The notes under the pieces: model-generated
What the model was told of the DNA's origin: nothing
What the model saw: the letters and a program-made list of their open reading frames with translations, nothing else
The model's database searches: none
Position numbers and translations under genes: made by a program
Part shown: positions 10,916 to 54,391 of the stretch, one piece after another
How positions within the stretch are numbered: the stretch's first letter is position 1
Layout: each line of letters opens with the position of its first letter
From: Candidatus Binatia bacterium
Lineage (GTDB): Bacteria > Desulfobacterota > Binatia > UBA9968
Assembly: GCA_036504975.1 (NCBI GenBank)
Contig: DASXUF010000173.1
Span: 2,745 to 66,744, forward strand
DNA length: 64,000 nucleotides
Reading direction: 5' to 3'

Positions 10916-10970
10916 TTTGGTCATTTGCTTACCGGCGAAGCTTTTGAATATACTTCTTGCGAGTGAAGCG

Positions 10971-27987: not shown

Positions 27988-28011
27988 GCGGGTTCTACTC
28001 TGCGGCTCGTT

Positions 28012-28965: not shown

Positions 28966-29052
28966 AAAAAGCGGCTTTCAGCGGTTAGCCGTCTCCGCCC
29001 AAGGCGGATCAGCCTCCGGCTGAAGCGATGAGTTGAAAAGAAGGAGCAAGCC

Positions 29053-29508
29053 ATGGAAGTGATTTTGAAAGAAGACATCCCCAACGTGGGAAAGATGGGC
29101 GAGGTGGTGCGGGTGCGCGACGGCTACGCGCGCAACTATCTTCTGCCGCGCGGGCTGGTTCTCGTTGCCAATAAGAAAAACCTCAAGGGCTTCGAGCATC
29201 AGAAACAAGTGGTTCAGTCGCAGAAAGCGCGGGTCGTCAATCAAGCCCAGGCGCTGGCGGAAAAGCTGTCTCAAGTCTCTCTCGTCATCCAGGTCAAGGC
29301 GGGCGAAGAGGGCAAGCTCTTCGGCTCGGTGACCAACATCGACATCGAGAAGGCGCTTAAAGCCAAGGGCATCGAGATCGAGCGGCGCAAGATCCATCTG
29401 AGCGAGCCGATCAAAATGGTCGGCGACTATCAGGTGCCGGTCCGCTTCACGTCCGAAGTGCAGGCCAACGTGCAAGTTTCGGTGGTTGCCGAGCAGGAGA
29501 AAAAGTAA
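29053..29508 (+). CDS. rplI: 50S ribosomal protein L9
   Basis: MEVILKEDIPNVGKMGEVVRVRDGYARNYLLPRGLV. Confidence 0.9.
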   Translation: MEVILKEDIPNVGKMGEVVRVRDGYARNYLLPRGLVLVANKKNLKGFEHQKQVVQSQKARVVNQAQALAEKLSQVSLVIQVKAGEEGKLFGSVTNIDIEKALKAKGIEIERRKIHLSEPIKMVGDYQVPVRFTSEVQANVQVSVVAEQEKK

Positions 29509-29562
29509 GGGCCTTGTTTTTTTGGAGAGGTGTCCGCAGCGCCGGTTTCGAATGAGACCGAT

Positions 29563-35274: not shown

Positions 35275-35478
35275 ATGAACGGTGAGCAGACCGAACTCAA
35301 ATTCCTGACCCTGGCCGAGGCTGCAACGATCCTGCAGGTGTCTAAACGGACTATTCTCAGGATGATCCAAAAGAAAGATGTCCCGGCGTTGAAAGTCGGC
35401 GGTCAGTGGCGGCTGCGAGAGAGCCAGTTGAAGAAATGGGCGGAGGAAAAAGAGGGCTTACTGGCGGCTTTCGAATAG
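35275..35478 (+). CDS. helix-turn-helix DNA-binding protein, excisionase/MerR-type (TIGR01764-like)
   Basis: MNGEQTELKFLTLAEAATILQVSKRTILRMIQKKDVPALKVGGQWRLRESQLKKWAEE. ATG 35275 preceded by GGAGGTG. No integrase nearby. Confidence 0.65.
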   Translation: MNGEQTELKFLTLAEAATILQVSKRTILRMIQKKDVPALKVGGQWRLRESQLKKWAEEKEGLLAAFE

Positions 35479-35589: not shown

Positions 35590-38500
35590 GTGGGTCTCTC
35601 CGACCGCATGGCCGAAGCCTTACAAGAATCTTATCAAGGCTTAGAGAGAAAAATTACCGAAAGAACGCGGGACCTTTCGGCCCTCTATGCGGCTCTGGCG
35701 CCTTTGGCGTCTGCGGATCCCACCCGCTTGCTTCAACAAATCGTGGAGCGGCTCAAAGAGGCAACGGGCGCCGACGCCGCGCTCATTCGTATTCTCGACA
35801 AAGAAACAAAATCTCTTCGTTCTCCGGCTCACGTCGGGTTTTCTTCCGCTTACTTGCAGTCGACGCAGGATCTCGACGAAGGCTCGGCCGTCCGCGCCGC
35901 CTTCACGTCGGGCGAGCCGATCATCGCGGCGGATATTTCAAAAGATTCGCGGCTGAAGGGTAAGAAGCAAATAGAGGCGGGATTTCGCTCGTGCGCTTTT
36001 CTGCCCCTGAAAGTATCCGGCGAGCTGCGCGGAGTCGTCCATCTTGCCAGTGGCAAGGCCGGGCACTTCAGCGCGGATAAGATGGACAACCTCATGGCGA
36101 TCGCCCGTCAAATGGGCGTGGCCATGGAGAATCGCGAGCTGCTCGAGGAAACCAAGCGGCGCGCGGAACAGCAGGAGGCATTGGTCAAGTCGCTGAGCTT
36201 GCTCATCGGCGCGTCGCAGAAGCTGGTTGCGCGGGTCGATATCGACACGCTGGCTCAAGATATTTTGACAACCGTCGTGACCTCTTTCGGCATACGTTTG
36301 GCTTGGATCGGCAGCGCCGAATCCGACGGCCGAGTACGCCCGCTTTATTGGGCGGGAGACGTAGCGGAGTATCTGAGGCACGTCGAAATCCGCTGGGACG
36401 ATTCCCCGCTTGGACAAGGACCCGCCGGACGCGCCATCCGGACCGGCCGGCCGGTTGTCATGGACGTTGCCACCGATCCTGGATTTGAGCCGTGGCGCAA
36501 GCCGGCTCTTGACCATGGCTATCGCGAGGTCGCCGCATTTCCTCTTATGCGCGGCGCCACGCCGTTCGGCCACCTGATTCTCTACAGCAGCCAAAACGGT
36601 TTTTTTACTTCCGAGCGAGTGGAATTGCTGCAAACCTACGCGAATATCGCCACCGGCGCCCTCGAGAGCGCCCGTCTCTTTGAAGAGACCAAGCGCCAGG
36701 CGCAGGAAAAAGCGGCTTTGAACACGATCGCCACGGCTGTGAGCCAGTCGCTCGACGTGCAACAGATCCTAAACATCGCCATCGAAAAAGTGCTGGAAGT
36801 TACCGGCCGCGAGCGGGGTTACATCCGACTTAAAGATCTGGTTACTGGCGAGGTCACGCTGGCGGCCCACAAGGGGATCTCCGAGGAGTACGCTAACGTT
36901 CTCATTCACCAAAGGACTCCGGGAGGCAAGACCGATCAGGTCTTTACAACCGGGAAGCCCGTGATCATCAACGATCCCACGGCGATACCGCTCAAAGGAG
37001 AGACGCGCCGCGAGGGGCAAAATGTCGTGGCTTGGATTCCTGTGAAGGCGCGCGGCGAAGTGATCGGGATTCTCAACGTCGCCTCGGCGCGGCTGGTCCC
37101 TTTCTCGACTCAGGAAGTGGAGCTGCTCCAATCGATCGGGAATGTTATTGGAGTAGCCCTGGAAAACGCCTGGCTCTATAAAGAGTCGCAGCAGCATCAC
37201 GATATCCAAAAGCTTCTGAAGGAGGTGAGCCAGGACGTTACGGTTCTCGGTCTCGACCGCTCGCTCACGAAGATCGCAGATAAGGTTCGGGAGATGTTTA
37301 AAGTCGACATCGCCGATTTCCGGATTATCGAGGCAGGGGCCGCGAAGTACATCGGCCGGTCGGGGCAATGGTCCGAGCTTCTCGTGGGATCCGGTAAGAT
37401 GAGAGGGCGGATGAAATGGATTTTAGAGCATCGAACTCCTCTCATCATTCCGGATATCAACGTAGAGACGAACCTTCCCAGCGGCGATTCTATCCGGCAT
37501 CTCGGCCTCAGGGGTTTTCTCGCGGTGCCTCTCTTGTCGAGGAGCGCGGAGGTCATCGGCGTTCTCAGAGCGCTGACTTATTTGCCCCGAGACTTTAGGC
37601 CGGAACAGGTCGATTTTCTCCAGCAGTTGGCCAACGGGGTGGCCATTGCGATCGAGAATGCGCGCCTCTTCGAAGAGACCGTGCAGCGGGCGCAAGAGCA
37701 GGCAGCTCTTAGCGCGATCGCGACGGCGACCAGCCAATCACTTCACATCGACGAAATGCTCCATTTAGCGTTGGACAAGGTGTTGGAGGTCACAGGGCGT
37801 GAAAAGGGTTACATCAGGCTGAAGGATCCACTCACCGGCGACGTCAAGTTAGCAGCCCACCGGGGCATCTCCGATAAATACGTCACGCTTCTGCAACGCC
37901 GGACTCCGGGCGGTAAAAGCGATCAGGTTTTTGAAACGGGAGAACCGGTCATCATCAACGCTCCCGAAAAAGCGCTTCTCAGGGAGGAAACCCGTGATGA
38001 AGGCAACAGCTCCATCGCCTGGATTCCACTGAAGGCGCATGGGAAAGTCGTGGGGATCCTCAACGTCTCTACGGCTCAATCGGGTTTTTTCACCTCGCGT
38101 GAGGTGGATCTCTTGCAGGCCATCGGAAACGTGATCGGAGTCGCGGTTGAAAACGGCTGGCTTTACCAGGAATCCCAGCGGCAGGAGGAGATTCAAAAAC
38201 TCCTGAAGGAATTGAGCCAGGACATCACCTCTCTCGACATCAAATCTTTTTTTCAAAAGGTCACGGACAAAGTCCGCGAATACTTCAAGGTCGATATCTC
38301 GGACATCCGGCTGATCGAGCAGGGCGGGATTCTGCCGCCGGTCGGCTTGTCGGGTGCAGATTCCAAGCCTCTGTACAAATTGGGCGGACTGAGGGGACGA
38401 GCCGGATGGATCGTCAAAAATCGGCGCGCCGCGGTTATTTCGGATACCTCGAAAGACACGACTATTCCGGCCGGCGATACGACGCGTGAGATCGGTATCC

Positions 38501-41064
38501 GCGGCTATCTCGCCGTGCCGCTGTTCGCGCGGAGCGGCGAGGTCATCGGCATTCTCAGGGCGCTCACTTATAAACCGCGCGAGTTCAGCCAGTCCGAAGT
38601 CGATCTCGTCCAGCAGTTGGCCAACGGCACCGCGATCGCACTCACCAATGCCCGCCTCTTCGAGGAGACCGAGCGCCGGGCGCGCGAGCAGGCGGCTCTC
38701 TATGGCGTGACCGCGGCGGTCAGCGGCTCTTTCGATATCGAACAGATTCTTCTCAAGGGTCTCGATGCGGTCCTCGAAGCGACCGGCATGGAAGGGGGAT
38801 ACATCCAGTTTCTTGATGGAAACCCTCCGAAGCTCGTCCTTAGAGCGCATCGCGGGATGTCCCAGACCTTCATCGCGAAGACTCGCGATGAAATTCGTCC
38901 GGGCGGCAAGACGCAGCAGATTATCGCGACGAAACAGCCCCTGGTGCTGGAAGATATCGCTCCCGATCACGGAAAATTTCAGGGCGAGAACATCACCGCC
39001 GCCGCGTGGGTGCCGATCGTGGCGAAAGACAAAGTGATCGCGGTTCTCGCCGTCAGCACCAAGACCAAACGCCATTTTCCCCAGGCCCAGCTCCCGCTCC
39101 TGGTCTCGATCGCCAACGCCCTCGGCGTGGCGCTGGAGAACGCCCGGCTGTTTCAGGAGACCGAGCGCAACCTCGAGCGCATCCGCGCGCTCCGAGAGAT
39201 CGACCAAGCCATTTCCTCGACCCTGGACCTGCGCAACGTCCTCGATGTTTTGCTCGAGAAGATCGATCTCTCCCTTCCCTACGCGACGGCTACCATCAGG
39301 CTGTTTAACAAAGAGAACGGCATGTTGGAGCCGGTCGCCTGCCGGAATCTGGACGAAAACGAATGGAAGCTCGAGCAATGGAAACCGGGCCGCGGCATCG
39401 CCAATGTCGTGTTCGAGACCAAGACCCCTTTGATCATCCCGAACGCGCAGGCCGACCCGCGCGTGCTCGACGCCGAGTTTTACCGCAAGCACAGGCTCAC
39501 CTCCTATGTCGGCGTTCCGTTGATCGTGAAAGAGGAGGCGCTTGGGGTGCTTGGGTTTTACACCAAGGAGGAGCACGACTTCACCGGCGAGGAAGTCGAT
39601 TTTCTCGCCACCCTGGCGGGTCAGGCGGCGATCGCCATTCACAATTCGCAGCTCTACGAGAATGCCCGCCTTAGAGAAAAGCAACTGGAGGAAACCAACC
39701 GGATGCTTTCGGCGCTCCATGCGGTGGCGGCGACGGCGAGCCAATCGCTGGATCTGGATCGGGTCTTTCAATCGGCCATCGGGAAGATCACCGACATTTT
39801 CGGCTTCGACGCCACCCATATTCATATCTACAACGAGCGCACGGACGAGCTGGCGTTAAGAGCCAGTTTCGAGAGCGATCCGAATCGTTTCGTCCCGGTC
39901 CAGTCCTTCCAGAGGGGCCAAGGCATTGTCGGCGAGGTGGCGGAATCGGGCCGATCTATGATCTTTGAAGACGTTCAGACCGATCCCACATACCAAAAGC
40001 TCAGCCGCAGCAAGACCTCGGGCTGTGCCGGCTATCATCTTTTCGCGGTCTTCCCGATCAAGGGCAAGCTGAGAAACTTGGGCACTCTGGCATGCACCGG
40101 CATAGACCCGCGAAAATTGACTCCGGGCGAAATCCAACTCCTCGAGGCGGTCGCGGACCAAGTCGCCGTGGCGATCGAAAACGGCCAGCTTTACGAGCAG
40201 CTCCGACAGAAGGTCGAAGAGCTGATGCAGGCGAACAAAGTCAAAGACGAATTCTTGAGCGTCATGTCGCATGAGCTGAGGACGCCGCTGAACGTGGTCA
40301 TGGGCTACGCGGCGATGATCAAGGACGAGATGCTGGGGGTCGTCAATCTGGAGCAGAAGCGGGCGTTGGAGAAAGTCATCAGCCGCTCGAGCGATCTTTT
40401 GAACATGATCACAAGCATTCTCTACGCCACCAGCATTGAGGCCAAAGAGGTCCGGGTGCAAAACAGCGAGTTCGGCTTGAGCGATCTGCTCGACGAGCTC
40501 AAGAGAATCTACGACATCTCTCTGCTCAAGCCGATTGCGCTCGACTGGGATTACGCTCCCGGCTTGCCTCAGGTGTTTTTGGATCGCGACAAAGCGCGGG
40601 TCGTACTGCAGAAACTCATCGACAATGCGACCAAATTCACCGAGACCGGCGGCGTCACCGTCACCGCGCGCCTGAGCGAGGGCCGGAAGCAGAATCCGGA
40701 AAACAGTCGGCGCGAGGCGCCGCTTCCCGAACCTGCCAACGGCTGGTTGTTCTTGGAGCCGCCGTGGCTGGAAGTGAAGGTGACCGATACCGGGGTGGGA
40801 ATAGCCAAGGACAAGCTCCCCGTTATCTTCGACAAGTTCCGCCAGGCCGACAGCTCGGAGACCCGGCGTTATGGCGGCGTCGGCCTGGGACTTTATATCG
40901 CCAAGCACTTCACCGAATTGCTGGGCGGTCATATCGAAGTCGAGACGGAGGAAGGAAAAGGATCGATTTTTACACTCAAGGTACCGTGCCCGATCTTGCC
41001 GTCGTCGGCGAGTTCAAAGAGCGAAAATATCGAATTGACCGGCCATGTGTCCCAGATTCACTAA
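35590..41064 (+). CDS. cytoplasmic sensor histidine kinase with nine tandem GAF domains + HisKA + HATPase_c (HK1)
   Basis: 1824 aa. Nine repeats, each ending in a linker of the form ...IENARLFEET... C-terminal H-box LSVMSHELRTPLNVVMGYAAMI and G1/G2 boxes (DTGVGI, GGVGLGLYIAKHF). No TM or receiver domain. Confidence 0.85.
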   Translation: MGLSDRMAEALQESYQGLERKITERTRDLSALYAALAPLASADPTRLLQQIVERLKEATGADAALIRILDKETKSLRSPAHVGFSSAYLQSTQDLDEGSAVRAAFTSGEPIIAADISKDSRLKGKKQIEAGFRSCAFLPLKVSGELRGVVHLASGKAGHFSADKMDNLMAIARQMGVAMENRELLEETKRRAEQQEALVKSLSLLIGASQKLVARVDIDTLAQDILTTVVTSFGIRLAWIGSAESDGRVRPLYWAGDVAEYLRHVEIRWDDSPLGQGPAGRAIRTGRPVVMDVATDPGFEPWRKPALDHGYREVAAFPLMRGATPFGHLILYSSQNGFFTSERVELLQTYANIATGALESARLFEETKRQAQEKAALNTIATAVSQSLDVQQILNIAIEKVLEVTGRERGYIRLKDLVTGEVTLAAHKGISEEYANVLIHQRTPGGKTDQVFTTGKPVIINDPTAIPLKGETRREGQNVVAWIPVKARGEVIGILNVASARLVPFSTQEVELLQSIGNVIGVALENAWLYKESQQHHDIQKLLKEVSQDVTVLGLDRSLTKIADKVREMFKVDIADFRIIEAGAAKYIGRSGQWSELLVGSGKMRGRMKWILEHRTPLIIPDINVETNLPSGDSIRHLGLRGFLAVPLLSRSAEVIGVLRALTYLPRDFRPEQVDFLQQLANGVAIAIENARLFEETVQRAQEQAALSAIATATSQSLHIDEMLHLALDKVLEVTGREKGYIRLKDPLTGDVKLAAHRGISDKYVTLLQRRTPGGKSDQVFETGEPVIINAPEKALLREETRDEGNSSIAWIPLKAHGKVVGILNVSTAQSGFFTSREVDLLQAIGNVIGVAVENGWLYQESQRQEEIQKLLKELSQDITSLDIKSFFQKVTDKVREYFKVDISDIRLIEQGGILPPVGLSGADSKPLYKLGGLRGRAGWIVKNRRAAVISDTSKDTTIPAGDTTREIGIRGYLAVPLFARSGEVIGILRALTYKPREFSQSEVDLVQQLANGTAIALTNARLFEETERRAREQAALYGVTAAVSGSFDIEQILLKGLDAVLEATGMEGGYIQFLDGNPPKLVLRAHRGMSQTFIAKTRDEIRPGGKTQQIIATKQPLVLEDIAPDHGKFQGENITAAAWVPIVAKDKVIAVLAVSTKTKRHFPQAQLPLLVSIANALGVALENARLFQETERNLERIRALREIDQAISSTLDLRNVLDVLLEKIDLSLPYATATIRLFNKENGMLEPVACRNLDENEWKLEQWKPGRGIANVVFETKTPLIIPNAQADPRVLDAEFYRKHRLTSYVGVPLIVKEEALGVLGFYTKEEHDFTGEEVDFLATLAGQAAIAIHNSQLYENARLREKQLEETNRMLSALHAVAATASQSLDLDRVFQSAIGKITDIFGFDATHIHIYNERTDELALRASFESDPNRFVPVQSFQRGQGIVGEVAESGRSMIFEDVQTDPTYQKLSRSKTSGCAGYHLFAVFPIKGKLRNLGTLACTGIDPRKLTPGEIQLLEAVADQVAVAIENGQLYEQLRQKVEELMQANKVKDEFLSVMSHELRTPLNVVMGYAAMIKDEMLGVVNLEQKRALEKVISRSSDLLNMITSILYATSIEAKEVRVQNSEFGLSDLLDELKRIYDISLLKPIALDWDYAPGLPQVFLDRDKARVVLQKLIDNATKFTETGGVTVTARLSEGRKQNPENSRREAPLPEPANGWLFLEPPWLEVKVTDTGVGIAKDKLPVIFDKFRQADSSETRRYGGVGLGLYIAKHFTELLGGHIEVETEEGKGSIFTLKVPCPILPSSASSKSENIELTGHVSQIH

Positions 41065-41108
41065 GGCGGTTGCGGCTTCGTCGTTTCGACCGCCGGCGCG
41101 CTAAATCT

Positions 41109-43796
41109 ATGCGGCAAAAACTCGTACAGTTAACGCTCGGCAACATCGCGGGTCGCCTCTGGTCGCTCCTGCCCTCGGGCGGCTCCCTGCCCGACGAGGT
41201 CTGGCGCAACCGGCACCGCTTTCTCGTCGGGCTCACGTGGTTCCATGCGGTCATCATCGCTCTTCTGGGGCTGATATTGAGCGAAAACTGGGAAGTGAGC
41301 CTGAGCGCGATTTACCATGAAGACACCCTGCTCCACGCGGTTTCCGAAGGATTGCTGGTCGGCGGGTTTGCGTTCTTGGGCAGCAGGCTCAAAGCCAGTC
41401 GCGCCTTGCGCGCCGCGCTCGTGGGCTTGGGACTGATCAGTTCCTCCGCCATTCTCGTGCATCTTTTTGGCGGCTACATCGAGCTTCATTTCCACTTCTT
41501 TGTCATGCTCACCTTTCTCGCGCTCTACCAGGATTGGTTCCCCTTCGGACTATCGATCTTGTACGTCGCGGTGCATCACGGCGTGGTGGGCGTCCTGTGG
41601 CCCACGGAAGTCTACAATCATCCCGCGGCGATCGAATCTCCCTGGACGTGGGCCGGCATCCACGCTTTCTTCGTGCTCTGGGCTTCCGTCGGAAGCGTGA
41701 TCGCCTGGCGTCTGAACGAGGCGGCGATCGCCCGCACCAAACTCATTTTGAACTCGGCCGGCGAAGGCATCTTCGGCGTCGACGCCGACGGCAAAGCTAT
41801 TTTCGTGAATCCGGCGGCGGAGAAGATGCTCGGCTATCAGATGACGGATCTGAACGGCCGGAGCATGCACGACGTTCTGCGCCATGCGCGAGCGGATGAG
41901 ACGCCATGCGCCGGTGAAGAATGCCCCGTATGCGCCGTGTTGAAGGACGCGACCGTCCACCAGGCAAGCGAGGAAGTGTTCCGGAGTAAGGACGGCACGG
42001 GCTTCCCCGTGGATTACGTGAGCACACCCATCATCGAAGGCGGGGAATTGCGCGGCGCCGTCGTGACTTTTCGAGACGTGAGCCAGCGCCAGCAAGCGGA
42101 GAGGGCGCAGAGAGAAAGCGAGCTCCGATTTCGCCAGATGGCTGAGAACATCAAGCAGGTTTTTTGGATAACCGATACGCTGACTAACGCGTGGCTCTAC
42201 GTCAGTCCCGCCTACGGTGAAATATGGGGGCGCAGCGCCGAAGCGCTCGGCCCGATGGCCCAGTCCTGGCTTGGCGCGATCCACCCGGAAGATCTCGAGC
42301 GGGTGCTCGCCGCCGTACGAACGAAGCAGGTCACGGGAAGCTACGACGAGGAGTACCGGATCGTGCGGCCCGACGGATCGATCCGTTGGATTCGCGACCG
42401 TGCCTTTCCGGTAAGAAACGACTCGGGCAGGAACTATCGCGTCGCGGGCATCGCCGAGGACATCACCGAGCGCAAGCGCGCGGAAGAGGACGCGGAGCGC
42501 AATTTGGAGCGCTTGCGGGCGCTCAGGGATATCGATCATGCCATTTCTTCGAGTCTGGATCTCCGGACGGTCCTCGCCGTGCTGATGGAGAAGATCGATC
42601 TCGTTCTGCCTTATGCCGTCGTTACCGTGAGGCTTTTCAATAAGGCGAGCGGCCTGCTCGAGCCCGTCGCCTGCCGAAACCTGGACGAAAACGAATGGAA
42701 AGAAGCTCAGTGGAGAGGCGGGCGGGGCATCAGCAACGTCGTGTTCGAGGGCAAGGCGCCGCTCATCATCCGGGACACCCTGGCCGACGCTCGAGTCGTG
42801 GACGGTGAATTTTACCGCAAGCATAGCCTGATTTCATACGTCGGGGTTCCATTGACCGTCAAAGAAGACACTCTAGGCGTGCTCGGCTTCTACACCAAAG
42901 AGGAGCACGATTTTACCGGCGAGGAAGTCGAGTTTCTCATGACGCTCGCCGGCCAGGCGGCCGTCGCGATCCATAATTCCCAGATCTACGAGGAGATGGC
43001 GCAATTGGCGGTCGACTTGGCGAGCTCCAACAAGGTGAAGGACGAATTCTTGAGCGTGATGTCGCATGAGCTGAGAACGCCGCTGAACGTGGTGATGGGC
43101 TATGCAGCGATGATCAAAGACAAGCTGCTCGGCGAGGTGAGTCCGGAGCAGAGCCATGTCCTGGATAAGTTGATGAGCCGGATGCGCTCCCAACTGGATA
43201 TGGTCAACGGCATCCTGCAGGCGACCCAGATCCAGGCGCACAATGTCACGATCGATCAAGAAGAGGTGAGCGTGGCCAATCTTTTAAACGAGCTTCAATT
43301 GGCTTACAGGGCTGCCCTGGACAAGCCGGTCAAGCTCATCTGGGACTATTCCCCGGATTTGCCTGCGATCCAGAGCGACGGCAAGAAGTTGAAGCAGATT
43401 CTGGCGAACCTGGTGGATAACGCCATCAAGTTCACCGACGAAGGCCGCGTCACCGTCTCTGCCAGAGTAAAGGAAGGCGACAAGGCTGTGGAGTTGCGGG
43501 TCGAGGACACCGGCCGCGGGATTCCGGCCGAAGCGCTGCCCATTATTTTCGAAAAATTTCGCCAGGCGGATAGCTCGGAGACGCGCCTCCACGGCGGGAT
43601 CGGTCTGGGACTCTACATCGCCAAGAACTTCGCCGAGCTTCTCGGCGGCGCGATCAAAGTCGAGACCGCGGTGGGGAAGGGGTCGGTCTTTACCGTGACG
43701 ATCCCGTGCTCGGAGCATTCGTCGAAAACATATCCTCCGGGAGACAAATCGACGGCGAGCGGTCACGCCCGGGAGTTCGGGCCGGTGTCGTTTTAG
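41109..43796 (+). CDS. membrane sensor histidine kinase: His-rich polytopic TM domain + 2 PAS (one Cys-rich) + GAF + HisKA + HATPase_c (HK2)
   Basis: Real start MRQKLVQLTL at 41109; the upstream 115 codons of the 1010-aa track ORF overlap HK1. TM region with many conserved His. PAS with PCAGEECPVC. Confidence 0.85.
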   Translation: MRQKLVQLTLGNIAGRLWSLLPSGGSLPDEVWRNRHRFLVGLTWFHAVIIALLGLILSENWEVSLSAIYHEDTLLHAVSEGLLVGGFAFLGSRLKASRALRAALVGLGLISSSAILVHLFGGYIELHFHFFVMLTFLALYQDWFPFGLSILYVAVHHGVVGVLWPTEVYNHPAAIESPWTWAGIHAFFVLWASVGSVIAWRLNEAAIARTKLILNSAGEGIFGVDADGKAIFVNPAAEKMLGYQMTDLNGRSMHDVLRHARADETPCAGEECPVCAVLKDATVHQASEEVFRSKDGTGFPVDYVSTPIIEGGELRGAVVTFRDVSQRQQAERAQRESELRFRQMAENIKQVFWITDTLTNAWLYVSPAYGEIWGRSAEALGPMAQSWLGAIHPEDLERVLAAVRTKQVTGSYDEEYRIVRPDGSIRWIRDRAFPVRNDSGRNYRVAGIAEDITERKRAEEDAERNLERLRALRDIDHAISSSLDLRTVLAVLMEKIDLVLPYAVVTVRLFNKASGLLEPVACRNLDENEWKEAQWRGGRGISNVVFEGKAPLIIRDTLADARVVDGEFYRKHSLISYVGVPLTVKEDTLGVLGFYTKEEHDFTGEEVEFLMTLAGQAAVAIHNSQIYEEMAQLAVDLASSNKVKDEFLSVMSHELRTPLNVVMGYAAMIKDKLLGEVSPEQSHVLDKLMSRMRSQLDMVNGILQATQIQAHNVTIDQEEVSVANLLNELQLAYRAALDKPVKLIWDYSPDLPAIQSDGKKLKQILANLVDNAIKFTDEGRVTVSARVKEGDKAVELRVEDTGRGIPAEALPIIFEKFRQADSSETRLHGGIGLGLYIAKNFAELLGGAIKVETAVGKGSVFTVTIPCSEHSSKTYPPGDKSTASGHAREFGPVSF

Positions 43797-43820
43797 CAAA
43801 GCGTCGCGCTGGAAAAGATT

Positions 43821-46800
43821 GTGAAGTCCAAGAAAAAAACTGCTGCGCTCGCCGAAAGAATCGCCGAAAGGAATTCCGATCTTTCCGCTCTCGCCCGAGA
43901 ACAACAGGCGCTCAACATGATCGCCCAGGCCGTCAGTCAATCGCTGCACCGCGACGAGCTGCTGGAGATCGCGCTCGACAAGGTTCTGGAGGTCACCGGC
44001 CGCGAGCGGGGAACGATCAGGCTCAAAGATTCGGTCACCGGCGACGTCAAGCTGTCGGCCCACCGCGGCTTCTCCGAAGAGGAAATAGCGGAGCTGCGTC
44101 GCAACATGCCGCATCGAATCAGCGAGCAGATTTTTGCTTCCGGCCAGCCGCTCGTCGTCAACGATCGGGCGGAGCTCCGTAACACGCAGTCTCTGTTGCC
44201 CCAAAGCCGCTCGGTCGCCTGGATCCCGATCAAGGCGCGGCAAAAAGTCGTCGGCGTGCTCGGGGTTTCCGCGGGCCGGCCCATACCATTTAGGCAACGC
44301 GAGGTCGATCTTCTTCAGGCGGTTGGCAGCGTCATCGGCGTCGCGATCGAAAATGCCCGGCTCTTCGAAGAAACCGGACGCCGGGCGCGCGAGCTGGCCG
44401 CGCTGCATGCGGTGACGGCCGCGGTCAGCGGCTCTTTCGATCTCGATCAGATTCTCCTCAAGGGTCTCGACGCGGTCCTCGAAGTAACGGAAATGGAAGT
44501 GGGTTACATCCAGTTTCTCGATGGCCACCCGCCCAGGCTTCTCCTCAAGGCGCATCGCGGCATGTCCGAATTGTTTCTCACGAGGTTCCAGGGCCGAGTT
44601 CGTCCGGGCGGCAAGACCGAGCAGATCATCGCGACGCGACAACCGCTGGTGCTGGAAAATATTCCCGCCGATCACGTGGGAAAATTCTCGGGCGAAAGAG
44701 TCACCGCGGCGGCGTGGGTGCCGATCACGTCGAAGGACAAAGTCATCGGCGTTCTCACCATCAGCACCAAAACCAGACCGACCTTTCCCCTGGCCCACCT
44801 TCCGCTGTTGGCCTCGATCGGCAATACGCTCGGGGTCGCGCTGGAGAACGCCCGGCTTTTCGAAGAAACCAAACAGCGCGCTCACGAGCAAGCGGTGCTC
44901 TCCGCGGTTGCCATGGCGATGAGCGAGTCGCTTCAGCTCGACGAGCTTCTGCGGATCGCGTTGGACCGGGTGCTCGAGGTCACCGGGAGGGAGCAAGGAT
45001 ATATACGGCTAAAAGATCCCGTCACCGGCAACCTAACGCTCGCCGCCCACCGCGGCGTTTCGGAAAATTATCTCCAAACGCTGCTGCATGGGCGCACGCC
45101 GGGCGGCAAGAGCGACCGCGTTTTCAAATCGGGGGAGCCGCTGGTCATCAACGATCCCGAAGGCTTTCAGCTCAAGGAACAGACCCGCCGCGAAGGAAAC
45201 CGCTCCTTCGTATGGGTTCCGTTAAAGGTGGGAGGAAAAACGGTCGGCATCGTGAACGTCTCGACGAGCCGGCCGCTTCCGTTCCAGCCGCGAGAAGTGG
45301 AGCTTTTGAAGGCGATCGGCAACGTGATCGGCGTGGCGCTGGAGAACGCGCGTCTCTTCAACGAAACCGAGCGGAGTCTGGAGCGCATCCGGGCGCTGAG
45401 AGAAATCGACCAGGCCATCACCACGAGTCTGGATCTGCGCACGATCCTGGACGTGCTGATGGAAAAAATCGATCTCGTCCTCCCGTACGCCGCGGCGACG
45501 GTGCGATTGCATAACAAGGAAAGCGGCTTCTTGGAACCCGTCGCCTGCCGAAACCTGGACGAAGAAGAATGGAAGAAAGCGCAGTGGAAAGGCGGACGGG
45601 GCATCGCCAACGTCGTTTTCGAAAAGCGGGCGCCGCTGATTATCCGCAACGCCCAGGCGGACGCGCGCGTGCTCGACGCCGCGTTTTACCGCAAGCACAG
45701 CCTGACCTCATACGTGGGAGTTCCCTTGCGGGTCAAGGACGAGGTCCTGGGGGTGCTCGGTTTCTACACCAAAGAGGAGCACGAATTCACCGGCGAGGAG
45801 GTCGAGTTCCTGATGACGCTGGCGGGGCAGGCGGCCATAGCGATCCACAAGTCCCAGCTTTACGAGGAGGCGCGTACTCGGGAAAAGGAAATGCAAGAAA
45901 CCAACCGCATGCTCTCGGCGTTGCATGCGGTGGCCGCCGCGGCGAGCCAATCGCTGGACCTCGACCGGGTCGTGCGCGCGGCGATCGAGAAAATTACCGA
46001 AATATTAGGCTTCGACGCGACGCAAATCCACGTTTACAACGGGCGCTCGGACGAGCTGGTCATGCGCGCCTACTACGAGATGGACCCGAAACTTTTCGTT
46101 TCGGTCCGAGCATTTAAGGTCGGACAAGGCATCGTCGGCAAAGTGGCCGAATCGGGCCAGCCGTTGATCTTCGAGGACGTCCTTACCGATCCGTTGTATC
46201 AAAGTCTCAGCCGCACGAAAGCGTCGTACCAGTTGGGCTATCATTTCTTTGCCGTCTTTCCGATTCGCGGCAAGCTCAGAAGCTTGGGCACGCTCGCCTG
46301 CACCGGCATCGACTCCCGGCGTTTGAGCTCCGGCGAGGTCCAACTGCTCGAGGCTATGGCGGACCAGATTGCCGTGGCGATAGAAAACACCGGGCTCTAC
46401 GAGCAGTTGACGCAGAAAGTCGACGAGCTGCAATTCAAGACCGAAGAGCTCCAGCGCGCCAACAAAGTCAAGGACGAATTCTTGAGCGTGATGTCGCACG
46501 AGCTCCGAACGCCGCTGAACGTCGTCATGGGTTATACCGCGATGATCAAGGACCAGATGGTCGGCGCGGTGAATCCGGAGCAGAGTCAAATTCTGGAGAA
46601 GCTGATGAGCCGCGTGCGCTCTCAGCTCGACATGGTCAACAGCATATTGCAGGCGACCCAGATTCAGGCGGCTACCGTCGCTCTCGAGCGCGAAGAAGTC
46701 AAGTTGAAAGATCTTCTCGACGGTCTCAAATCGGACCACAGCGCCAATTTGACCAAGCCCCTGACTCTGATCTGGGACTATCCACGGGACTTGCCCGCGA

Positions 46801-47276
46801 TCCAGAGCGACGGCAAAAAGCTGAAGCAGATTCTGGAGAACTTGATCCACAACGCCATCAAGTTCACCGACCAGGGCTGTGTGACCGTCTCGGCGAAGAT
46901 AACAGAAGGCGGTATGCGGAAAGCAGTAAGCAGCGGGCACGAAGCTGAGATTCTGCCTGCTGCCGACCGCCTGCTGGCTACGGGGAGGCGGTGGCTGGAG
47001 TTGCGGGTTGCGGACACCGGGCGCGGGATTCCGGCGCAAGCGCTGTCCATTATTTTCGAAAAATTTCGCCAGGCGGACAGCTCCGAGACCCGGCGCTACG
47101 GCGGCGTCGGCCTGGGACTTTATATCGTCAAGAACTTTACCGAACTCCTCGGCGGCGCGGTCGAGGTCGAGACCGAGGAAGGAAAGGGATCGATCTTTAC
47201 TGTGACGATTCCTTGCACGGTCTCGTCTTCGGCTGCGGAACGCCCGGAGGAATCCAAAAGGCTGAAATCCGCGTGA
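43821..47276 (+). CDS. cytoplasmic sensor histidine kinase with five tandem GAF domains + HisKA + HATPase_c (HK3)
   Basis: 1151 aa; same module grammar as HK1. H-box LSVMSHELRTPLNVVMGYTAMI. Confidence 0.85.
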   Translation: MKSKKKTAALAERIAERNSDLSALAREQQALNMIAQAVSQSLHRDELLEIALDKVLEVTGRERGTIRLKDSVTGDVKLSAHRGFSEEEIAELRRNMPHRISEQIFASGQPLVVNDRAELRNTQSLLPQSRSVAWIPIKARQKVVGVLGVSAGRPIPFRQREVDLLQAVGSVIGVAIENARLFEETGRRARELAALHAVTAAVSGSFDLDQILLKGLDAVLEVTEMEVGYIQFLDGHPPRLLLKAHRGMSELFLTRFQGRVRPGGKTEQIIATRQPLVLENIPADHVGKFSGERVTAAAWVPITSKDKVIGVLTISTKTRPTFPLAHLPLLASIGNTLGVALENARLFEETKQRAHEQAVLSAVAMAMSESLQLDELLRIALDRVLEVTGREQGYIRLKDPVTGNLTLAAHRGVSENYLQTLLHGRTPGGKSDRVFKSGEPLVINDPEGFQLKEQTRREGNRSFVWVPLKVGGKTVGIVNVSTSRPLPFQPREVELLKAIGNVIGVALENARLFNETERSLERIRALREIDQAITTSLDLRTILDVLMEKIDLVLPYAAATVRLHNKESGFLEPVACRNLDEEEWKKAQWKGGRGIANVVFEKRAPLIIRNAQADARVLDAAFYRKHSLTSYVGVPLRVKDEVLGVLGFYTKEEHEFTGEEVEFLMTLAGQAAIAIHKSQLYEEARTREKEMQETNRMLSALHAVAAAASQSLDLDRVVRAAIEKITEILGFDATQIHVYNGRSDELVMRAYYEMDPKLFVSVRAFKVGQGIVGKVAESGQPLIFEDVLTDPLYQSLSRTKASYQLGYHFFAVFPIRGKLRSLGTLACTGIDSRRLSSGEVQLLEAMADQIAVAIENTGLYEQLTQKVDELQFKTEELQRANKVKDEFLSVMSHELRTPLNVVMGYTAMIKDQMVGAVNPEQSQILEKLMSRVRSQLDMVNSILQATQIQAATVALEREEVKLKDLLDGLKSDHSANLTKPLTLIWDYPRDLPAIQSDGKKLKQILENLIHNAIKFTDQGCVTVSAKITEGGMRKAVSSGHEAEILPAADRLLATGRRWLELRVADTGRGIPAQALSIIFEKFRQADSSETRRYGGVGLGLYIVKNFTELLGGAVEVETEEGKGSIFTVTIPCTVSSSAAERPEESKRLKSA

Positions 47277-47286
47277 TGGTGGACGA

Positions 47287-49530
47287 ATGAATAGATTTTC
47301 CTTCTCGGGGCTCCGCGTCCGCTTGATCCTGCTGGTTCTTTTGGCCGTGATCCCGGCCTTGGGACTGATCTTCTACGCGGCCTCTGCGCCGGACGAGCAT
47401 AACATGGCGCACAGTCTGGTTTGGCTCATGATCGTTTTGCTGTTGACCCTGGCCGGCGCTTGGTGGGGCGGTAACTGGCTGATCGTCGGGCAATTGAAGA
47501 GATTGATGGAAGCGACTGAAAAGCTCGGCACCGGTGATCTCGACGCGCGGGTTGCCGTTTCGAACGGCGACGGCGAGCTGCAAAAACTTGCCCGAGGGTT
47601 CAATCAAATGGCCGAAGGCCTGCAACGTCGCGACGCCGAGACGAAGCTGGCGCAAAGCGAGCTCAAGCGGCTGCTGCGGCAGAGCACGGCGCTGCGCGAG
47701 ATCAACCTCGCCGTCACCTCGAGTCTGGATTTACGCGCGGTATTGGGGGTCTTGATGGAGAAAATCCAGATCCTGCTTCCTTACGCCGTGCTTCTCGTCT
47801 GGCTCAGGAACCGCGAGACCGGAGAACTGGAGCGGACGGCTTGCTGGAACATCGATGAAGCCGACTGGAAGCGGCGGAAGAACAAGGACGCGCCGCCGAT
47901 TATCAAAGCGGCGATTGAAAATCAGAGTCCGGTTTCCGTCCTCGACGTGCCCACCGATCCCCGGACCGAGAATCCGGAGTTCTACCGCCGGAACGGCGTG
48001 GTCTCCTATCTCGGAGTCCCCCTGATCGTCAAAGGCGAGGCGCTGGGGGTTTTGGCCTTTCTGACACGCGAGCGGCACGAATTCACCGCCGAGGAGGTAG
48101 AGTTCTTGTCCTCCCTGGCGGGCCAGGCGGCGGTGGCGATCCATAACTCTCAGCTTCACGAGCAGAGCAAAAGACAGGCGGTCGAGCTCGAGAAAGCGAA
48201 CAAGGATTTAAGTCGAAAGGAAGCGATCCAGGCGCTGCTCAAGGAGCTAAGCCAGGACATCGCGTCTCAGGACGTGGGAAGCTTGCTTAAAAAGCTCACC
48301 GACAAAGTGTGCGAGTTCTTCAAAGTGGACATCGCCGACGTGCGCATCATCGACAACGGCGTGCCGCGCATCCTCGGCGTCTCCGGCGTCGACGAAGAGA
48401 AGATGCGGCTCGGCAGCACCGGCAGCGGCAGAGGCGCATCGGGATGGATCGTCGCAAACCGCAGACCGCTCGCGATAGCGGACTTGACGAAAGTAAAAAA
48501 TCCTCCGATCGGCCGGACGACGCGCCGCATCGGCATCCACGGCTATCTTGCCGTGCCGTTTTTTTCCCGCAGCGGAGAAGTCCTGGGCGTTCTCCGGGCG
48601 TTGACCTACCGGCCGAGAGAGTTTCTCCAGGAGGAAATAGATCTGTTGCAGCAGATGACCAACGGCGCCGCCATCGCGTTGGAAAACGCCCGGCTTCTGG
48701 AGCAGACCCAGACCCAGGCGGCCGAGCTCAGGCAGGCGAACAAGGTCAAGAACGAGTTTCTGGGCTTCGTGTCGCACGAGCTGAGGACGCCGGTGAACGT
48801 CATCATGGGTTATGCGGCGATCCTGCAAAGCAAGATGCTGGGCGAGATCAACGCCGAGCAGGACAACGCGCTGGAAAAAATGAGCGTCAATTCGAAAGAG
48901 CTGCTGAGCATGATCGAACTGCTTTTGGAGGCGACCAAGATCGAGGCCGGCGCCGCGGCGGTGGAGATCGCGGAAGTCAATTTGTCCGATTTTCTCGAGG
49001 ATCTAAAATCCGCCTACTCCATTCCGTTGAAGAAGCAGATACGTCTGGATTGGGATTGGCCCAAGAACTTTCCCGTTATAAAAACCGACCGCGAGAAGCT
49101 GAGACACATCCTGCTGAACGTCATCGGCAACGCGGTCAAATATACCGAGCAGGGCAGCGTCGGCGTTTCGGCGCGCTATCTGGTCGAACAGGGGCGGGTC
49201 GAGTTCGAAGTCACGGACACCGGGATCGGCATTCCGAAAGAGGAGCTGCCGCGCATCTTCGAGATGTTCTCTCAAGTCCGCAGCGCCCGGTCCAAGTCTT
49301 CCGGCGGAGTGGGCCTCGGCCTTCACATCGTCAAGAAGTTTACCGAGCTGCTCGGCGGAGACATCCGCGTGACGAGCGAAGAGGGCAAAGGATCGACGTT
49401 TGCGATAAGGTTGCCCACCGGCGGCCAGGCCGGGCAGGCGCCCGACCGTCAGGACTTTCGCGCGGATGAATCTTCGGCTGCGCGAGAAAAAGAAAGCGCC
49501 GAGCGTCCGGTCCCGGCGGGGGATTCTTGA
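47287..49530 (+). CDS. membrane sensor histidine kinase: 2 TM + HAMP + 2 GAF + HisKA + HATPase_c (HK4)
   Basis: 747 aa. Two hydrophobic helices, HAMP (GDLDARVAVSNGDGELQKLARGFNQMAEGL), H-box FVSHELRTPVNVIMGYAAIL. Confidence 0.85.
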   Translation: MNRFSFSGLRVRLILLVLLAVIPALGLIFYAASAPDEHNMAHSLVWLMIVLLLTLAGAWWGGNWLIVGQLKRLMEATEKLGTGDLDARVAVSNGDGELQKLARGFNQMAEGLQRRDAETKLAQSELKRLLRQSTALREINLAVTSSLDLRAVLGVLMEKIQILLPYAVLLVWLRNRETGELERTACWNIDEADWKRRKNKDAPPIIKAAIENQSPVSVLDVPTDPRTENPEFYRRNGVVSYLGVPLIVKGEALGVLAFLTRERHEFTAEEVEFLSSLAGQAAVAIHNSQLHEQSKRQAVELEKANKDLSRKEAIQALLKELSQDIASQDVGSLLKKLTDKVCEFFKVDIADVRIIDNGVPRILGVSGVDEEKMRLGSTGSGRGASGWIVANRRPLAIADLTKVKNPPIGRTTRRIGIHGYLAVPFFSRSGEVLGVLRALTYRPREFLQEEIDLLQQMTNGAAIALENARLLEQTQTQAAELRQANKVKNEFLGFVSHELRTPVNVIMGYAAILQSKMLGEINAEQDNALEKMSVNSKELLSMIELLLEATKIEAGAAAVEIAEVNLSDFLEDLKSAYSIPLKKQIRLDWDWPKNFPVIKTDREKLRHILLNVIGNAVKYTEQGSVGVSARYLVEQGRVEFEVTDTGIGIPKEELPRIFEMFSQVRSARSKSSGGVGLGLHIVKKFTELLGGDIRVTSEEGKGSTFAIRLPTGGQAGQAPDRQDFRADESSAAREKESAERPVPAGDS

Positions 49531-49545
49531 GGGAGGCCTCAGAGT

Positions 49546-51642
49546 TTGATGGAAGTTAACGCTCTCGTTCGAATCAGTCGAGTCATGCGACGCGCTCTCG
49601 GACAGGCGCGTGCCGCGGTCGCCTACCTGATTTACGAGCACACGATTCTCCTGCTGACCGTCATGTTTTGCGCCGCAGGGGCGGCGACGCTGTGGCATTT
49701 GTCCCGCCTGTCGGCAACTCTAGTCGAGTCCGGAGCGTTACAGGGAACCGTGCTCTATTCCGGATCTCTCACCGAGCTGCGCACCTTCTATGGCTCCGAG
49801 GTCGTGGATAGGGTCAGGTCGCGCGGCATCGAGGCCACCCACGACTACGCCGGCAAACAAGGCGCAATCCCGATTCCGGCGACATTCACGATCGAGTTCG
49901 GCAAGCACATGGGCGCGATCAGCCCCGGGATGCAGATCCGCCTCTACAGCGATTATCCTTTTCCGTTCAGGAAAGACGGCGGTCCGAGAGATGGTTTCGA
50001 GCGCGACGCTCTTCTGGAGCTGAGAAAAAATCCCGGCCAACCTTATTTTCGTTTTGAAGATTTCCAGGGCAGAGCGTCCTTGCGCTATGCCACCGCGGTC
50101 CAACTGCGCGCCGGGTGCGTCTCCTGCCACAACACTCATCCCGAGAGCCCCAAGATCGATTGGCAGGTCGGCGACGTAAGAGGAGTCCAGGAGATTATTC
50201 GCCCCTTGGACAGCGCCATCGCCGAGACCCGCTCGGGCCTCCAAAGCACCTTTGTCCTTCTCGGCACGATGGGACTTTTGGGAGTGGGCGGCCTAGCCAT
50301 GGTGATCGGCAGGATGCGCCGCACCTCGGTGGAGTTGCAGCAGCGGGTCGCCGAGCGCACCGCCGCCGAGGCCCGTTTGGCGGCGTTACATGAAATCAAT
50401 CTGGCCGCGACCTCGACCCTGGATCTGCCTAACGTCTTGAGAGTGTTGTTGGAAAAAATCGGCGTCTTCCTACCCTATGCCGCGGCCACCGTCCGTTTAT
50501 TCAATGAAGCGAGCGGTCTCCTGGAGCCGATTGCCTGCCTGAACCTCGACGAAGAGGAATGGAAGGAAGAGCAATGGAAAGGCGGCCGCGGATTGCCGAA
50601 CGTGATCTTCAAAAATAGGGTGCCTTGGATGGTGCGGAATATTCAAACCGACTCGCGCGTCCAGGACCCCGATTTTTTTCGCCGGCAGGGTTTGGTTTCC
50701 TATCTGGGAGTTCCTTTGATCGTGAAAGACGAGATCTTCGGGGTCATTTCCTTTTATACGAAAAAAGAGCACGATTTCAGCGACGACGAAATCGAATTTC
50801 TCAACACGCTCGTCGGACAGGCGGCCATCGCGATCAATAATTCGCAGCTCTTCGAGCAGACCCGAAGCCAGGCGGTCGCGATGGAGAAATCAAACAAGGT
50901 CAAGGACGAATTTTTGAGCGTCATGTCGCATGAGCTGAGAACTCCGTTGAATGTGGTCATCGGCTATACCGGACTGATGAAAGAAGGAATATTGGGCGCC
51001 GTCAGCGAAGAGCAAACCAAAGCCTTGGACAAAATCGGCGATCGGGCCAAGGACCAATTGACCATGATCGACAGTATTTTGTTCGCTACTTCGGTCGAGA
51101 CCCGCGAGATCAAGGCGGAGTCCCAGGAGTTGAACCTGGCGGCGTTTCTCGACGATCTCAAGTCAAGCTATGAAGTTTCGGTGGAAACGCGAATCCGTCT
51201 GAATTGGATCTACGCGGCGGATTTGCCGGTGGTCCAGTTAGACGTGGCAAAGCTGAGACACGTCCTGCAAAATCTCATCAATAATGCACTCAAGTTCACC
51301 CGCGAGGGCGAGGTGGCGGTATCGGCGAGAATGATGGGAAACGGACAGCACGCAGGGGGCAATGGGTATCCGGCATTTATAGAATTCAAGGTGGCCGATA
51401 CCGGTATCGGCATTGCGGAGTCGCATGTGCAGGTCATCTTCGACAAGTTCCGCCAGGTGGACAGCTCCGAGACGAGACCGTACGGAGGCGTCGGCATCGG
51501 CCTTTACATCGTGAAAAAATTCACCGAGATGCTCGGCGGCACCGTCGATGTCGAGAGCAAGCCCGGCGAAGGATCGACGTTTACGGTCCGAGTGCCTTGC
51601 GCCGTCGCCAATGTTAAGGGTCAAGGCGCCGATTGGATATAA
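49546..51642 (+). CDS. sensor histidine kinase with periplasmic DUF3365 (CXXCH, putative heme-c) domain + GAF + HisKA + HATPase_c (HK5)
   Basis: 698 aa. N-terminal TM, periplasmic domain containing GCVSCHNTHPESPKIDW (CXXCH), second TM, then the conserved C-terminal GAF and kinase core. Confidence 0.85.
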   Translation: MMEVNALVRISRVMRRALGQARAAVAYLIYEHTILLLTVMFCAAGAATLWHLSRLSATLVESGALQGTVLYSGSLTELRTFYGSEVVDRVRSRGIEATHDYAGKQGAIPIPATFTIEFGKHMGAISPGMQIRLYSDYPFPFRKDGGPRDGFERDALLELRKNPGQPYFRFEDFQGRASLRYATAVQLRAGCVSCHNTHPESPKIDWQVGDVRGVQEIIRPLDSAIAETRSGLQSTFVLLGTMGLLGVGGLAMVIGRMRRTSVELQQRVAERTAAEARLAALHEINLAATSTLDLPNVLRVLLEKIGVFLPYAAATVRLFNEASGLLEPIACLNLDEEEWKEEQWKGGRGLPNVIFKNRVPWMVRNIQTDSRVQDPDFFRRQGLVSYLGVPLIVKDEIFGVISFYTKKEHDFSDDEIEFLNTLVGQAAIAINNSQLFEQTRSQAVAMEKSNKVKDEFLSVMSHELRTPLNVVIGYTGLMKEGILGAVSEEQTKALDKIGDRAKDQLTMIDSILFATSVETREIKAESQELNLAAFLDDLKSSYEVSVETRIRLNWIYAADLPVVQLDVAKLRHVLQNLINNALKFTREGEVAVSARMMGNGQHAGGNGYPAFIEFKVADTGIGIAESHVQVIFDKFRQVDSSETRPYGGVGIGLYIVKKFTEMLGGTVDVESKPGEGSTFTVRVPCAVANVKGQGADWI

Positions 51643-53951: not shown

Positions 53952-54353
53952 ATGCAGAACGATGAACAATCGATTCGCGAGTTAGTCGCCGAATGGCAGG
54001 AGGCCGCCGCGGCCGGGAATTTATCGAGACTTCTCGAGTTAATGGCGGATGACGTCACCTTTTACGTAGTGGGTCAGCCGCCCATGCGCGGCAAGGAGGC
54101 GTTTGCGGCGGCGTTCCGAACCGCCGTGGAGCGTGTCCGCATCGAATCGACCGCAAAAATCGAAGAGCTCCAGATCGCAGGCAACTTCGCGCATCTGGCA
54201 AATTATCTAGTGGTGACGATGACGCCGCTCCACGGCGGGTCAATCATGCGCCGGTCGGGGCACACGCTCACGATCCTGCGCAAGGAAGTCGATGGGCGTT
54301 GGATCCTATTCCGCGATGCCAACATGCTGGCGCCGGAAAAATCGAATGCGTGA
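53952..54353 (+). CDS. SgcJ/EcaC-like NTF2-fold protein (DUF4440/SnoaL-like)
   Basis: 133 aa. IRELVAEWQEAAAAGNLSRLLELMADDVTFYV is a typical NTF2-like opening. Confidence 0.55.
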   Translation: MQNDEQSIRELVAEWQEAAAAGNLSRLLELMADDVTFYVVGQPPMRGKEAFAAAFRTAVERVRIESTAKIEELQIAGNFAHLANYLVVTMTPLHGGSIMRRSGHTLTILRKEVDGRWILFRDANMLAPEKSNA

Positions 54354-54391
54354 GACCTTACTATGACCGCGACTCTCGACGTAATTCTTTC

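Follow-up and report, generated by a model that had tools for sequence, protein, structure and literature searches.

How can five sensor histidine kinase genes that follow each other head to tail, with no response regulator gene among their neighbours, form a working signalling system? The question is raised by a 64-kb stretch of DNA from Candidatus Binatia bacterium (GenBank assembly GCA_036504975.1, contig DASXUF010000173.1), hereafter the window, in which all coordinates are counted. The five kinase genes, HK1 to HK5, lie on the + strand between positions 35590 and 51642. Open reading frame (ORF) calls confirmed the order, strand and lengths of the genes as given in an earlier interpretation made without database searches (the sequence-only reading), which saw in them a diversifying sensory battery without receivers that had not been described as a unit. 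We consider it likely that the array is instead a conserved lineage-specific expansion of one sensor histidine kinase family in this bacterium, and that the kinases signal to receivers encoded elsewhere.

HK1 (35590-41064, 1824 amino acids) is a cytoplasmic protein in which nine GAF domains are followed by HisKA and HATPase_c, as seen with Pfam, GAF typing and the mapping of hidden Markov models (HMMs); hydropathy gave no convincing transmembrane segment. The GAF type which all five kinases have in common, called the D-type or signature GAF, is located at 39142-39648, the transmitter at 40231-41061 and the phospho-acceptor histidine at 40270-40272. HK2 (41109-43796) has 895 amino acids when counted from the ATG at 41109, the frame being open from 40764, and consists of a histidine-rich six-helix membrane domain (41109-41760), two PAS domains (about 41736-42455), the D-type GAF (42474-42980) and a transmitter delimited with Pfam (43026-43778, histidine 43065-43067). 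HK3 (43821-47276, 1151 amino acids) is again cytoplasmic and has five GAF domains, among them the D-type GAF at 45348-45854, before its transmitter (46458-47273, histidine 46497-46499). HK4 (47287-49530, 747 amino acids), the most diverged of the five, has two transmembrane helices with a very short outer loop according to hydropathy, a HAMP domain (about 47476-47625), the D-type GAF (47644-48150), a B-type GAF (48193-48687) and the transmitter (48736-49491, histidine 48775-48777). HK5 (49546-51642, 698 amino acids) has a periplasmic Tll0287-like or sCache_heme domain (about 49825-50205) between two transmembrane helices, with the sequence CVSCH at 50116-50130 (residues 191-195), and then the D-type GAF (50338-50844) and the transmitter (50890-51636, histidine 50929-50931). 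The Pfam sensor content, that is, nine GAF in HK1, two PAS and one GAF in HK2, five GAF in HK3, HAMP and two GAF in HK4, and a Tll0287-like domain and one GAF in HK5, agrees with the swapped sensors listed in the sequence-only reading (a 9xGAF chain, a His-rich membrane domain with PAS, a 5xGAF run, TM-HAMP and a CXXCH heme domain). The inputs thus differ from kinase to kinase: a periplasmic c-heme sCache domain, a His-rich six-helix membrane domain with PAS, an intramembrane/HAMP sensor and long cytoplasmic GAF chains. From HK1 to HK5 the genes are spaced by 44, 24, 10 and 15 bp, and a scan for promoters and terminators gave the same counts as shuffled sequence. Given this spacing of 10-44 bp, with no excess of terminator-like sites, the five genes probably form one operon, which would begin with a small HTH_17 gene upstream of HK1 or directly behind it.

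All five proteins score far above the Pfam cut-offs for HisKA (PF00512, 51.9-59.1 bits, cut-off 26.9) and HATPase_c (PF02518, 81.9-110.3 bits, cut-off 26.4). The core alignment shows the H-box core SHELRTP in each of them, and the N box (xNAxK[FY]T), G1 box (DTGxGI), F box (F[DE]xFxQ) and G2 box (GGxGxGL) are kept throughout; each gene is therefore predicted to encode a catalytically intact HisKA/HATPase_c kinase of class I. The H-box had been described as identical in all five, and this is true for HK1 to HK3; HK5 has ...NVVIGY and HK4 has LGFVSHELRTPVNVIMGY. A search of NCBIfam assigned none of the five kinases to a named equivalog, and the best matches of the transmitter cores are LuxQ, TorS, BarA and ArcB, all far below the cut-offs. 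Between the N and G1 boxes there is an insertion of 25-28 amino acids in HK1 (about 40660-40790) and HK3 (about 46890-47000) and of 11 amino acids in HK5, and none in HK2 or HK4.

Upstream of the kinase core the GAF types A to E recur in differing order: X-X-A-B-A-B-C-D-E in HK1, A-C-A-D-E in HK3 and HAMP-D-B in HK4, with six transmembrane helices-PAS-PAS-D in HK2 and sCache_heme-D in HK5. The typing covered 16 of the 18 domains; the linker pattern missed the second GAF and the D-type GAF of HK1, and the position of the latter was taken from the alignment of cores and GAFs. The signature GAF had been placed directly before HisKA in every kinase. This holds for HK2 and HK5, but a type E GAF intervenes in HK1 and HK3 and a type B GAF in HK4. 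A search of the PDB with the D-type GAF returned generic GAF relatives (cGMP phosphodiesterase, PtsP, DevS), and we therefore assign it no ligand. An internal period of 990 nt is present in HK1 (36699-38699) and one of 987 nt in HK3 (43892-45065), both at about 70% identity; in HK1 it is the A-B GAF pair duplicated inside the gene.

How old are these paralogs? A nucleotide identity of 80-85% had been given for their kinase cores. In codon-aware alignments we measured 56-76% at the nucleotide and 44-69% at the amino acid level, and for the signature GAF 57-76% and 47-81%, respectively. A repeat finder gave 84-85% nucleotide identity only in HK2/HK3 stretches of at most 225 nt. Recent duplication or gene conversion was ruled out by the third-codon-position identity of 42-64% among the paralogs and by the lack of any repeat longer than 225 nt above 85%. 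The module similarities conflict with those of the cores: HK1 and HK3 share 81% in GAF D and 56% in the core, while the closest core to that of HK2 is that of HK3 (69%). This conflict and the re-use of the GAF types support domain shuffling on one kinase chassis, and in this respect the sequence-only reading was right.

As that reading had proposed, related genomes were surveyed for conservation of the array. GTDB species representatives were scanned with the five D-type GAFs, which gave 50 loci (designated by L-numbers), nearly all from metagenome-assembled genomes of Candidatus Binatia or 'Deltaproteobacteria' from soil and groundwater; owing to its seed the survey is biased toward this kinase family. 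Three HMMs, for the window-type transmitter (K), the D-type GAF and the receiver domain REC, were mapped on all loci, and tandem K-type kinases, at least two per locus, were found in 13 of them. By tblastn with the flanking genes of the window, the order cupin-DeoC-ADH-HTH_17-giant multi-GAF kinase proved syntenic in L004, L006, L007, L016, L018 and L024, and the same order recurs in L060-L063, contigs which were reached through the HTH protein. The arrays comprise 2-6 kinases per genome. In L004 and L005, which belong to one genome broken inside an HK1-like core, the order read across the break is HTH-HK1-HK3-HK4-HK5-(kinase of a second type)-REC. L054, with 77-85% nucleotide identity to the window, has HTH-HK1-HK2-HK4, after which the array stops; L003 has HK1-HK4 and L062/63 two kinases. 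Orthologs of HK3 (L005:2058-6236, 66% identity) and HK5 (L005:9246-11315, 80% identity) were found as well as of HK4 (L003, L005, L007, L011, L014, L024, L054) and HK2 (L054). The HK1 orthologs range from about 1480 to an estimated 2800 amino acids at least and carry from 5 to at least 13 GAF domains, so that GAF number is very variable.

In a neighbour-joining tree of 57 transmitter cores, HK1, HK3/HK2, HK4 and HK5 each group with cores from other genomes. The paralogs thus predate the species splits, and the view that the array is actively diversifying by recent duplication has to be given up: they are old. The HK2 core of the window falls with the window HK3 and the HK3 ortholog of L005, despite its different N-terminus; HK2 is best described as an HK3-type core placed on another sensor. 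Array membership is fluid, with members gained, lost and recombined between species. Within the limits of a survey seeded with the D-type GAF, we thus find a kinase family that occurs almost only in Binatia and 'Deltaproteobacteria' genomes and has varied sensors and orphan cores, as in the lineage-specific expansions of Alm et al. (2006).

Where, then, are the receivers? With an HMM built from six textbook receivers (filters off, six frames, open frames of at least 50 amino acids) no REC domain better than E = 8.5 was found in the 64 kb, and Pfam showed no REC or Hpt domain in any of the ORFs scanned across the window. The statement that none of the five kinases carries a receiver is therefore correct, and none of them is a hybrid kinase (REC HMM, Pfam Response_reg). 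The further statement that no regulator or Hpt gene lies within 15 kb on either side could be confirmed as far as the 64 kb reach, which is 35.5 kb upstream and only 12.4 kb downstream of the array. Within this reach there is no regulator gene, so that the array is not a classical two-component operon.

The relatives show that this orphan state is a family-wide trait and not a peculiarity of the window. Two transmitter types occur in the loci, both called HisKA and HATPase_c by Pfam: the K-type with the H-box FLSVMSHELRTPLN..GY and a second, phytochrome-like type with FAYVASHDLQEPLRMV.SY (SHDLQEPLR). Among the K-type cores with enough downstream sequence, 50 of 53 have no adjoining REC gene, while 15 of the 20 second-type genes have a single-domain REC directly 3'. 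Fused REC domains are found in a few K-type genes, N-terminal in seven and C-terminal in one (L022). In addition, several arrays of the relatives end with a module [Tll0287- or PAS-GAF(D)-second-type kinase][single-domain REC][REC-GAF(D)-K] (L005:11654-14258, L015:11779-16269, L014:5095-9341, L011:5135-7759, L024:14693-17337). Thus, contrary to the sequence-only reading, this type of array is not receiver-free in general. The end module resembles a kinase-to-kinase cascade and is absent from the window. A remnant of it was sought 3' of HK5, where an MscS gene starts after 196 bp, and none was found, nor a REC in any frame.

When the 55 REC domains of these loci were placed in a tree, three relevant clusters were seen. 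The first comprises the N-terminal RECs of the REC-GAF-K proteins and the second the receivers 3' of second-type kinases. The third unites the C-terminal REC on the K core of L022 (138-2882), single-domain receivers of L028 (2390-2842) and L009 (323-688), and the first REC of L023. The L028 receiver directly follows a K-type kinase whose catalytic domain is mostly lost by frameshift or deletion, and the L009 receiver lies beside HTH_17 and a K-type kinase. Receivers of the L009/L028 type have roughly 122 amino acids and the pattern MKKxILLxED...IPILAATAKAL...GCDDYIAKPF. We regard these CheY-like receivers as a candidate partner class for the window kinases.

We suggest the following course of signalling. 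Its own cue would cause each kinase to autophosphorylate at the histidine of the H-box; from there the phosphoryl group would move on to a single receiver, or to a small number of them, encoded at other sites in the genome. The likeliest partner would be a stand-alone CheY-like receiver which starts a phosphorelay, since the transmitters resemble those of hybrid kinases and, in relatives, this transmitter type is now and then fused to such a receiver or found next to one; the third REC cluster, the likeness to LuxQ, TorS, BarA and ArcB and the matching positions in the first helix of the dimerization and phosphotransfer (DHp) domain, taken together, point to the same target. Several points weigh against this interpretation. 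The 64 kb of genome yield no partner receiver, and the receiver lead comes from four loci of about 38. The residues of helix 1 are common in the subfamily, and the differences in helix 2 would fit separate partners equally well. Co-transcription is deduced from spacing alone. Finally, the circuit in this organism may differ from that of the relatives, as their terminal kinase-REC-(REC-kinase) module is absent here.

The same DHp domains bear on the rival which survives best, namely that each kinase has its own distal cognate regulator and the array is a nursery of duplicates without signal integration. The specificity positions were mapped by HK853 numbering and make a weak argument. In helix 1 the positions +7, +8, +11, +12 and +15 read NVGY[M/I/L] in all five kinases, which speaks for a shared partner; these residues discriminate poorly, because NxxxGY is common throughout this HisKA subfamily. 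The helix-2 positions differ (LVS, LLM, LLV, LMS and LIA), as would be expected for separate partners, and DHp identity is just 46-71% between pairs except for HK2/HK3 with 84%. In addition, the numbers of orphan kinases and orphan regulators correlate across genomes, and cross-talk has been argued to be limited (PMC1630713). Against a one-to-one wiring, the fact that the genes remain clustered and in the same order from species to species points to a common function, and the receivers near family members are single-domain proteins typical of convergent relays. Such a wiring is conceivable, yet we find it doubtful compared with convergence on receivers encoded elsewhere.

Signalling without any receiver, through kinase-kinase heteromers that would make the array a new kind of unit, is much harder to sustain. 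The 64 kb contain no REC, several arrays of the relatives also end without one (L054, L062/63), HK2 and HK3 are similar enough in their DHp domains that this pair could heterodimerise, and kinase-kinase regulation is known for GacS/RetS (PMC5992135). However, all five kinases keep the catalytic and phosphatase motifs (HELRT) which are needed for phosphotransfer to a receiver, most DHp pairs have the low identity given above, and other genomes have receivers that are fused to members of the family or encoded beside them. Moreover, orphans are a typical sign of kinase expansion (PMC1630713). We therefore judge receiver-independent signalling to be very unlikely.

A further candidate for the output is the HTH_17 protein. 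Its gene (35275-35478, + strand) starts at the position reported in the sequence-only reading and in public gene calls, ends 111 bp upstream of HK1 and encodes a 67-residue excisionase/MerR-like, BldC-like protein, a small single-domain member of the HTH_17/excisionase family (PF12728, 59.7 bits, cut-off 27, E 3.2e-16; TIGR01764, 57 bits, cut-off 28.8). The gene had been dismissed as a mere tiny neighbour. In fact it is the most constant non-kinase partner of these arrays. There are 127 homologs with 63-99% identity, the named ones called excisionase family DNA binding protein or helix-turn-helix, some of them from Candidatus Binatia. A tblastn search located a homolog just ahead of the kinase cluster in 15 of the loci that had been found with the GAF seed. 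At 13 places with a visible downstream gene the homolog precedes a large same-strand kinase ORF, usually by 20-130 bp, and those of the kinase ORFs with Pfam data are GAF-rich; in L064 two binding-protein genes stand between the homolog and the kinase. In total the linkage is seen in the window and in L004, L006, L007, L009, L015, L016, L018, L024, L029, L033, L038-L041, L046 and L054-L064. The HTH_17 stop codon is the sole stop before HK1 in a common reading frame, which is probably coincidental, because the frames differ in L060.

It could be imagined that the HTH_17 protein is controlled directly by the kinases, by binding or non-canonical phosphorylation, and replaces the response regulator. 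The HTH_17 gene and a receiver-less multi-GAF kinase array, possibly acting through kinase heteromers, would then be a Binatia-wide device with a BldC-like protein as the transcriptional output of several kinases. The constant linkage on the same strand and at short distance, seen across homologs of 63-99% identity, is in line with this, as is the finding that the receivers of the relatives are single-domain proteins without DNA-binding output. However, the protein lacks a receiver domain, and a mechanism of this kind has no precedent. Its closest solved relatives, the BldC structures 6AMK and 6AMA, match with E 0.1-0.2 only, so that a specific kinship to BldC is not established. A small HTH protein upstream which regulates itself or the operon is the simpler explanation. 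We thus give neither the direct output nor the Binatia-wide device more than a slim chance, and the simplest reading is that the HTH_17 protein is a regulator of the kinase operon. A role as recombination directionality factor is unlikely for it, because the window contains no integrase or mobile-element gene nearby.

That the assembly made the five genes out of a single one, by collapse or chimerism, as the metagenomic source and the repeated modules might suggest and as the sequence-only reading had named as a way to refute it, has practically no probability, since the paralogs differ by 24-44% of their nucleotides without long identical stretches, the gene order is kept in other genomes, and the HK3-HK4-HK5 junctions were recovered in two independent Logan assemblies, short metagenome contigs of 4.6 kb with the end of HK3 and exact copies of HK4 and HK5 (99.9-100% identical).

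Returning to the reading as a lineage-specific expansion with distant receivers, we find close counterparts among known systems. Domain shuffling and orphan kinases characterise the expansion of kinase families, in which one or few members often have a receiver (Alm et al. 2006, PMC1630713), and multikinase networks are an established concept (PMC5992135); the array can therefore not be called undescribed as a unit. With the expansions of Alm, Huang and Arkin (2006), for example in Desulfovibrio, it shares the paralogous transmitters, the rearranged N-terminal sensors, the presence of membrane and soluble members, and the fact that most members lack an adjacent regulator while few have a receiver, represented here by the second-type kinase and REC of the relatives. 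In contrast to these, it is a contiguous, ordered array, headed by HTH_17 and syntenic across the class Binatia, and its GAF chains, of 5 to at least 13 domains per protein, are unusually long. In the networks KinA-E to Spo0F (Bacillus), LuxN/LuxQ/CqsS to LuxU (Vibrio) and GacS/RetS/LadS (Pseudomonas) several kinases with different inputs act together (PMC5992135), and a similar convergence is plausible here; the best matches of the transmitters are LuxQ, TorS, BarA and ArcB, if below the cut-offs. The known networks are mostly dispersed, whereas the kinases described here are non-hybrid and lie in one operon-like array. The SHDLQEPLR kinase at the end of the relatives' arrays, followed by a receiver of about 125-150 amino acids, recalls the Cph1/Rcp1 type of pair; this pair is absent from the window, and its sensor in the relatives is Tll0287 or PAS plus a D-type GAF, not the bilin-binding PAS-GAF-PHY. 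Searches of the literature for Binatota with histidine kinase and, to judge from titles and abstracts, for HTH_17 with histidine kinase gave no prior description of the locus. The locus is thus a real but ordinary case of well-known kinase expansion and no new class of signalling system. It shows how a sensory repertoire is built in uncultured soil and groundwater Binatia, where one kinase chassis has been duplicated and GAF, PAS, HAMP, heme-Cache and membrane modules have been dealt out anew. As natural chimeras, the five kinases lend themselves to the study of signal transfer from GAF chains to the kinase, and testable hypotheses on the wiring in a phylum without genetics follow from the constant presence of HTH_17 and from the candidate class of CheY-like receivers.

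Two of the sensors deserve separate mention. For the first 217 amino acids of HK2 no match was found in Pfam, in NCBIfam or among the sequences of the PDB. Hydropathy shows at least four strongly hydrophobic segments in this region, which contains 11 histidines in 215 amino acids, and AlphaFold2 predicts a bundle of six long helices (pLDDT 90.8). The 142 homologs of this domain are fused to PAS-kinases, directly to HisKA or to GGDEF, and some sit on proteins named methyl-accepting chemotaxis proteins by their sources. Eight histidines are invariant or almost invariant (H46, H76, H118, H127, H129, H156/H157, H171, H185), and E80, E125, QDW141-143 and N170 are also conserved. The domain looks like an uncatalogued membrane sensor module, which occurs also on chemoreceptors and diguanylate cyclases, and it probably binds a cofactor or metal. 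The sensor of HK5 is clearly recognised as sCache_heme/Tll0287-like (PF11845, 61.1 bits, cut-off 24.1, E 2.1e-16). The Tll0287 domain has been re-described as sCache_heme, a family which binds c-type heme and behaves like a nitric oxide sensor (PMC12889525). As in the sCache_heme (DUF3365/Tll0287) sensors GSU0582 and GSU0935 of Geobacter (PMC12889525), the CXXCH-containing domain of HK5 lies between two transmembrane helices (residues 24-42 and 236-254), the placement required for c-type heme. In the window one of the five kinases carries such a domain, and its heme site is a prediction from sequence.

The other genes of the window encode functions in metabolism, transport and housekeeping, with PRPP synthetase, L25, Pth, aldehyde:ferredoxin oxidoreductase, MoeA, solute-binding proteins, DeoC aldolase, ADH, MscS and ornithine cyclodeaminase among the recognised families and about a dozen ORFs without a Pfam match. 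Upstream of the array the order S6/SSB-S18-DUF2232-L9 ... FGE-sulfatase-EamA-cupin-DeoC-ADH is kept; the surroundings of the array are therefore a stable part of the chromosome and not a mobile island. The gene of the DUF2232 membrane protein is located at 28012-28965 (region 27900-29510), and its equivalent in the relatives stands between the ribosomal S18 and L9 genes. At least nine genes of periplasmic solute-binding proteins (NMT1/THI5-like, SBP_bac) are present in the 64 kb (333-1268, 1345-3519, 4110-5228, 7556-8563, 17952-19115, 19183-20193, 54299-55519, 59780-60928, 62104-63108), mostly without adjacent permease or ATPase genes detected. The aldehyde:ferredoxin oxidoreductase gene adjoins two MoeA genes, one of them fused to a PBP-like domain of the molybdate/tungstate-binding type, and this region (8580-14280) probably serves as a gene cluster for a tungsten or molybdenum cofactor.

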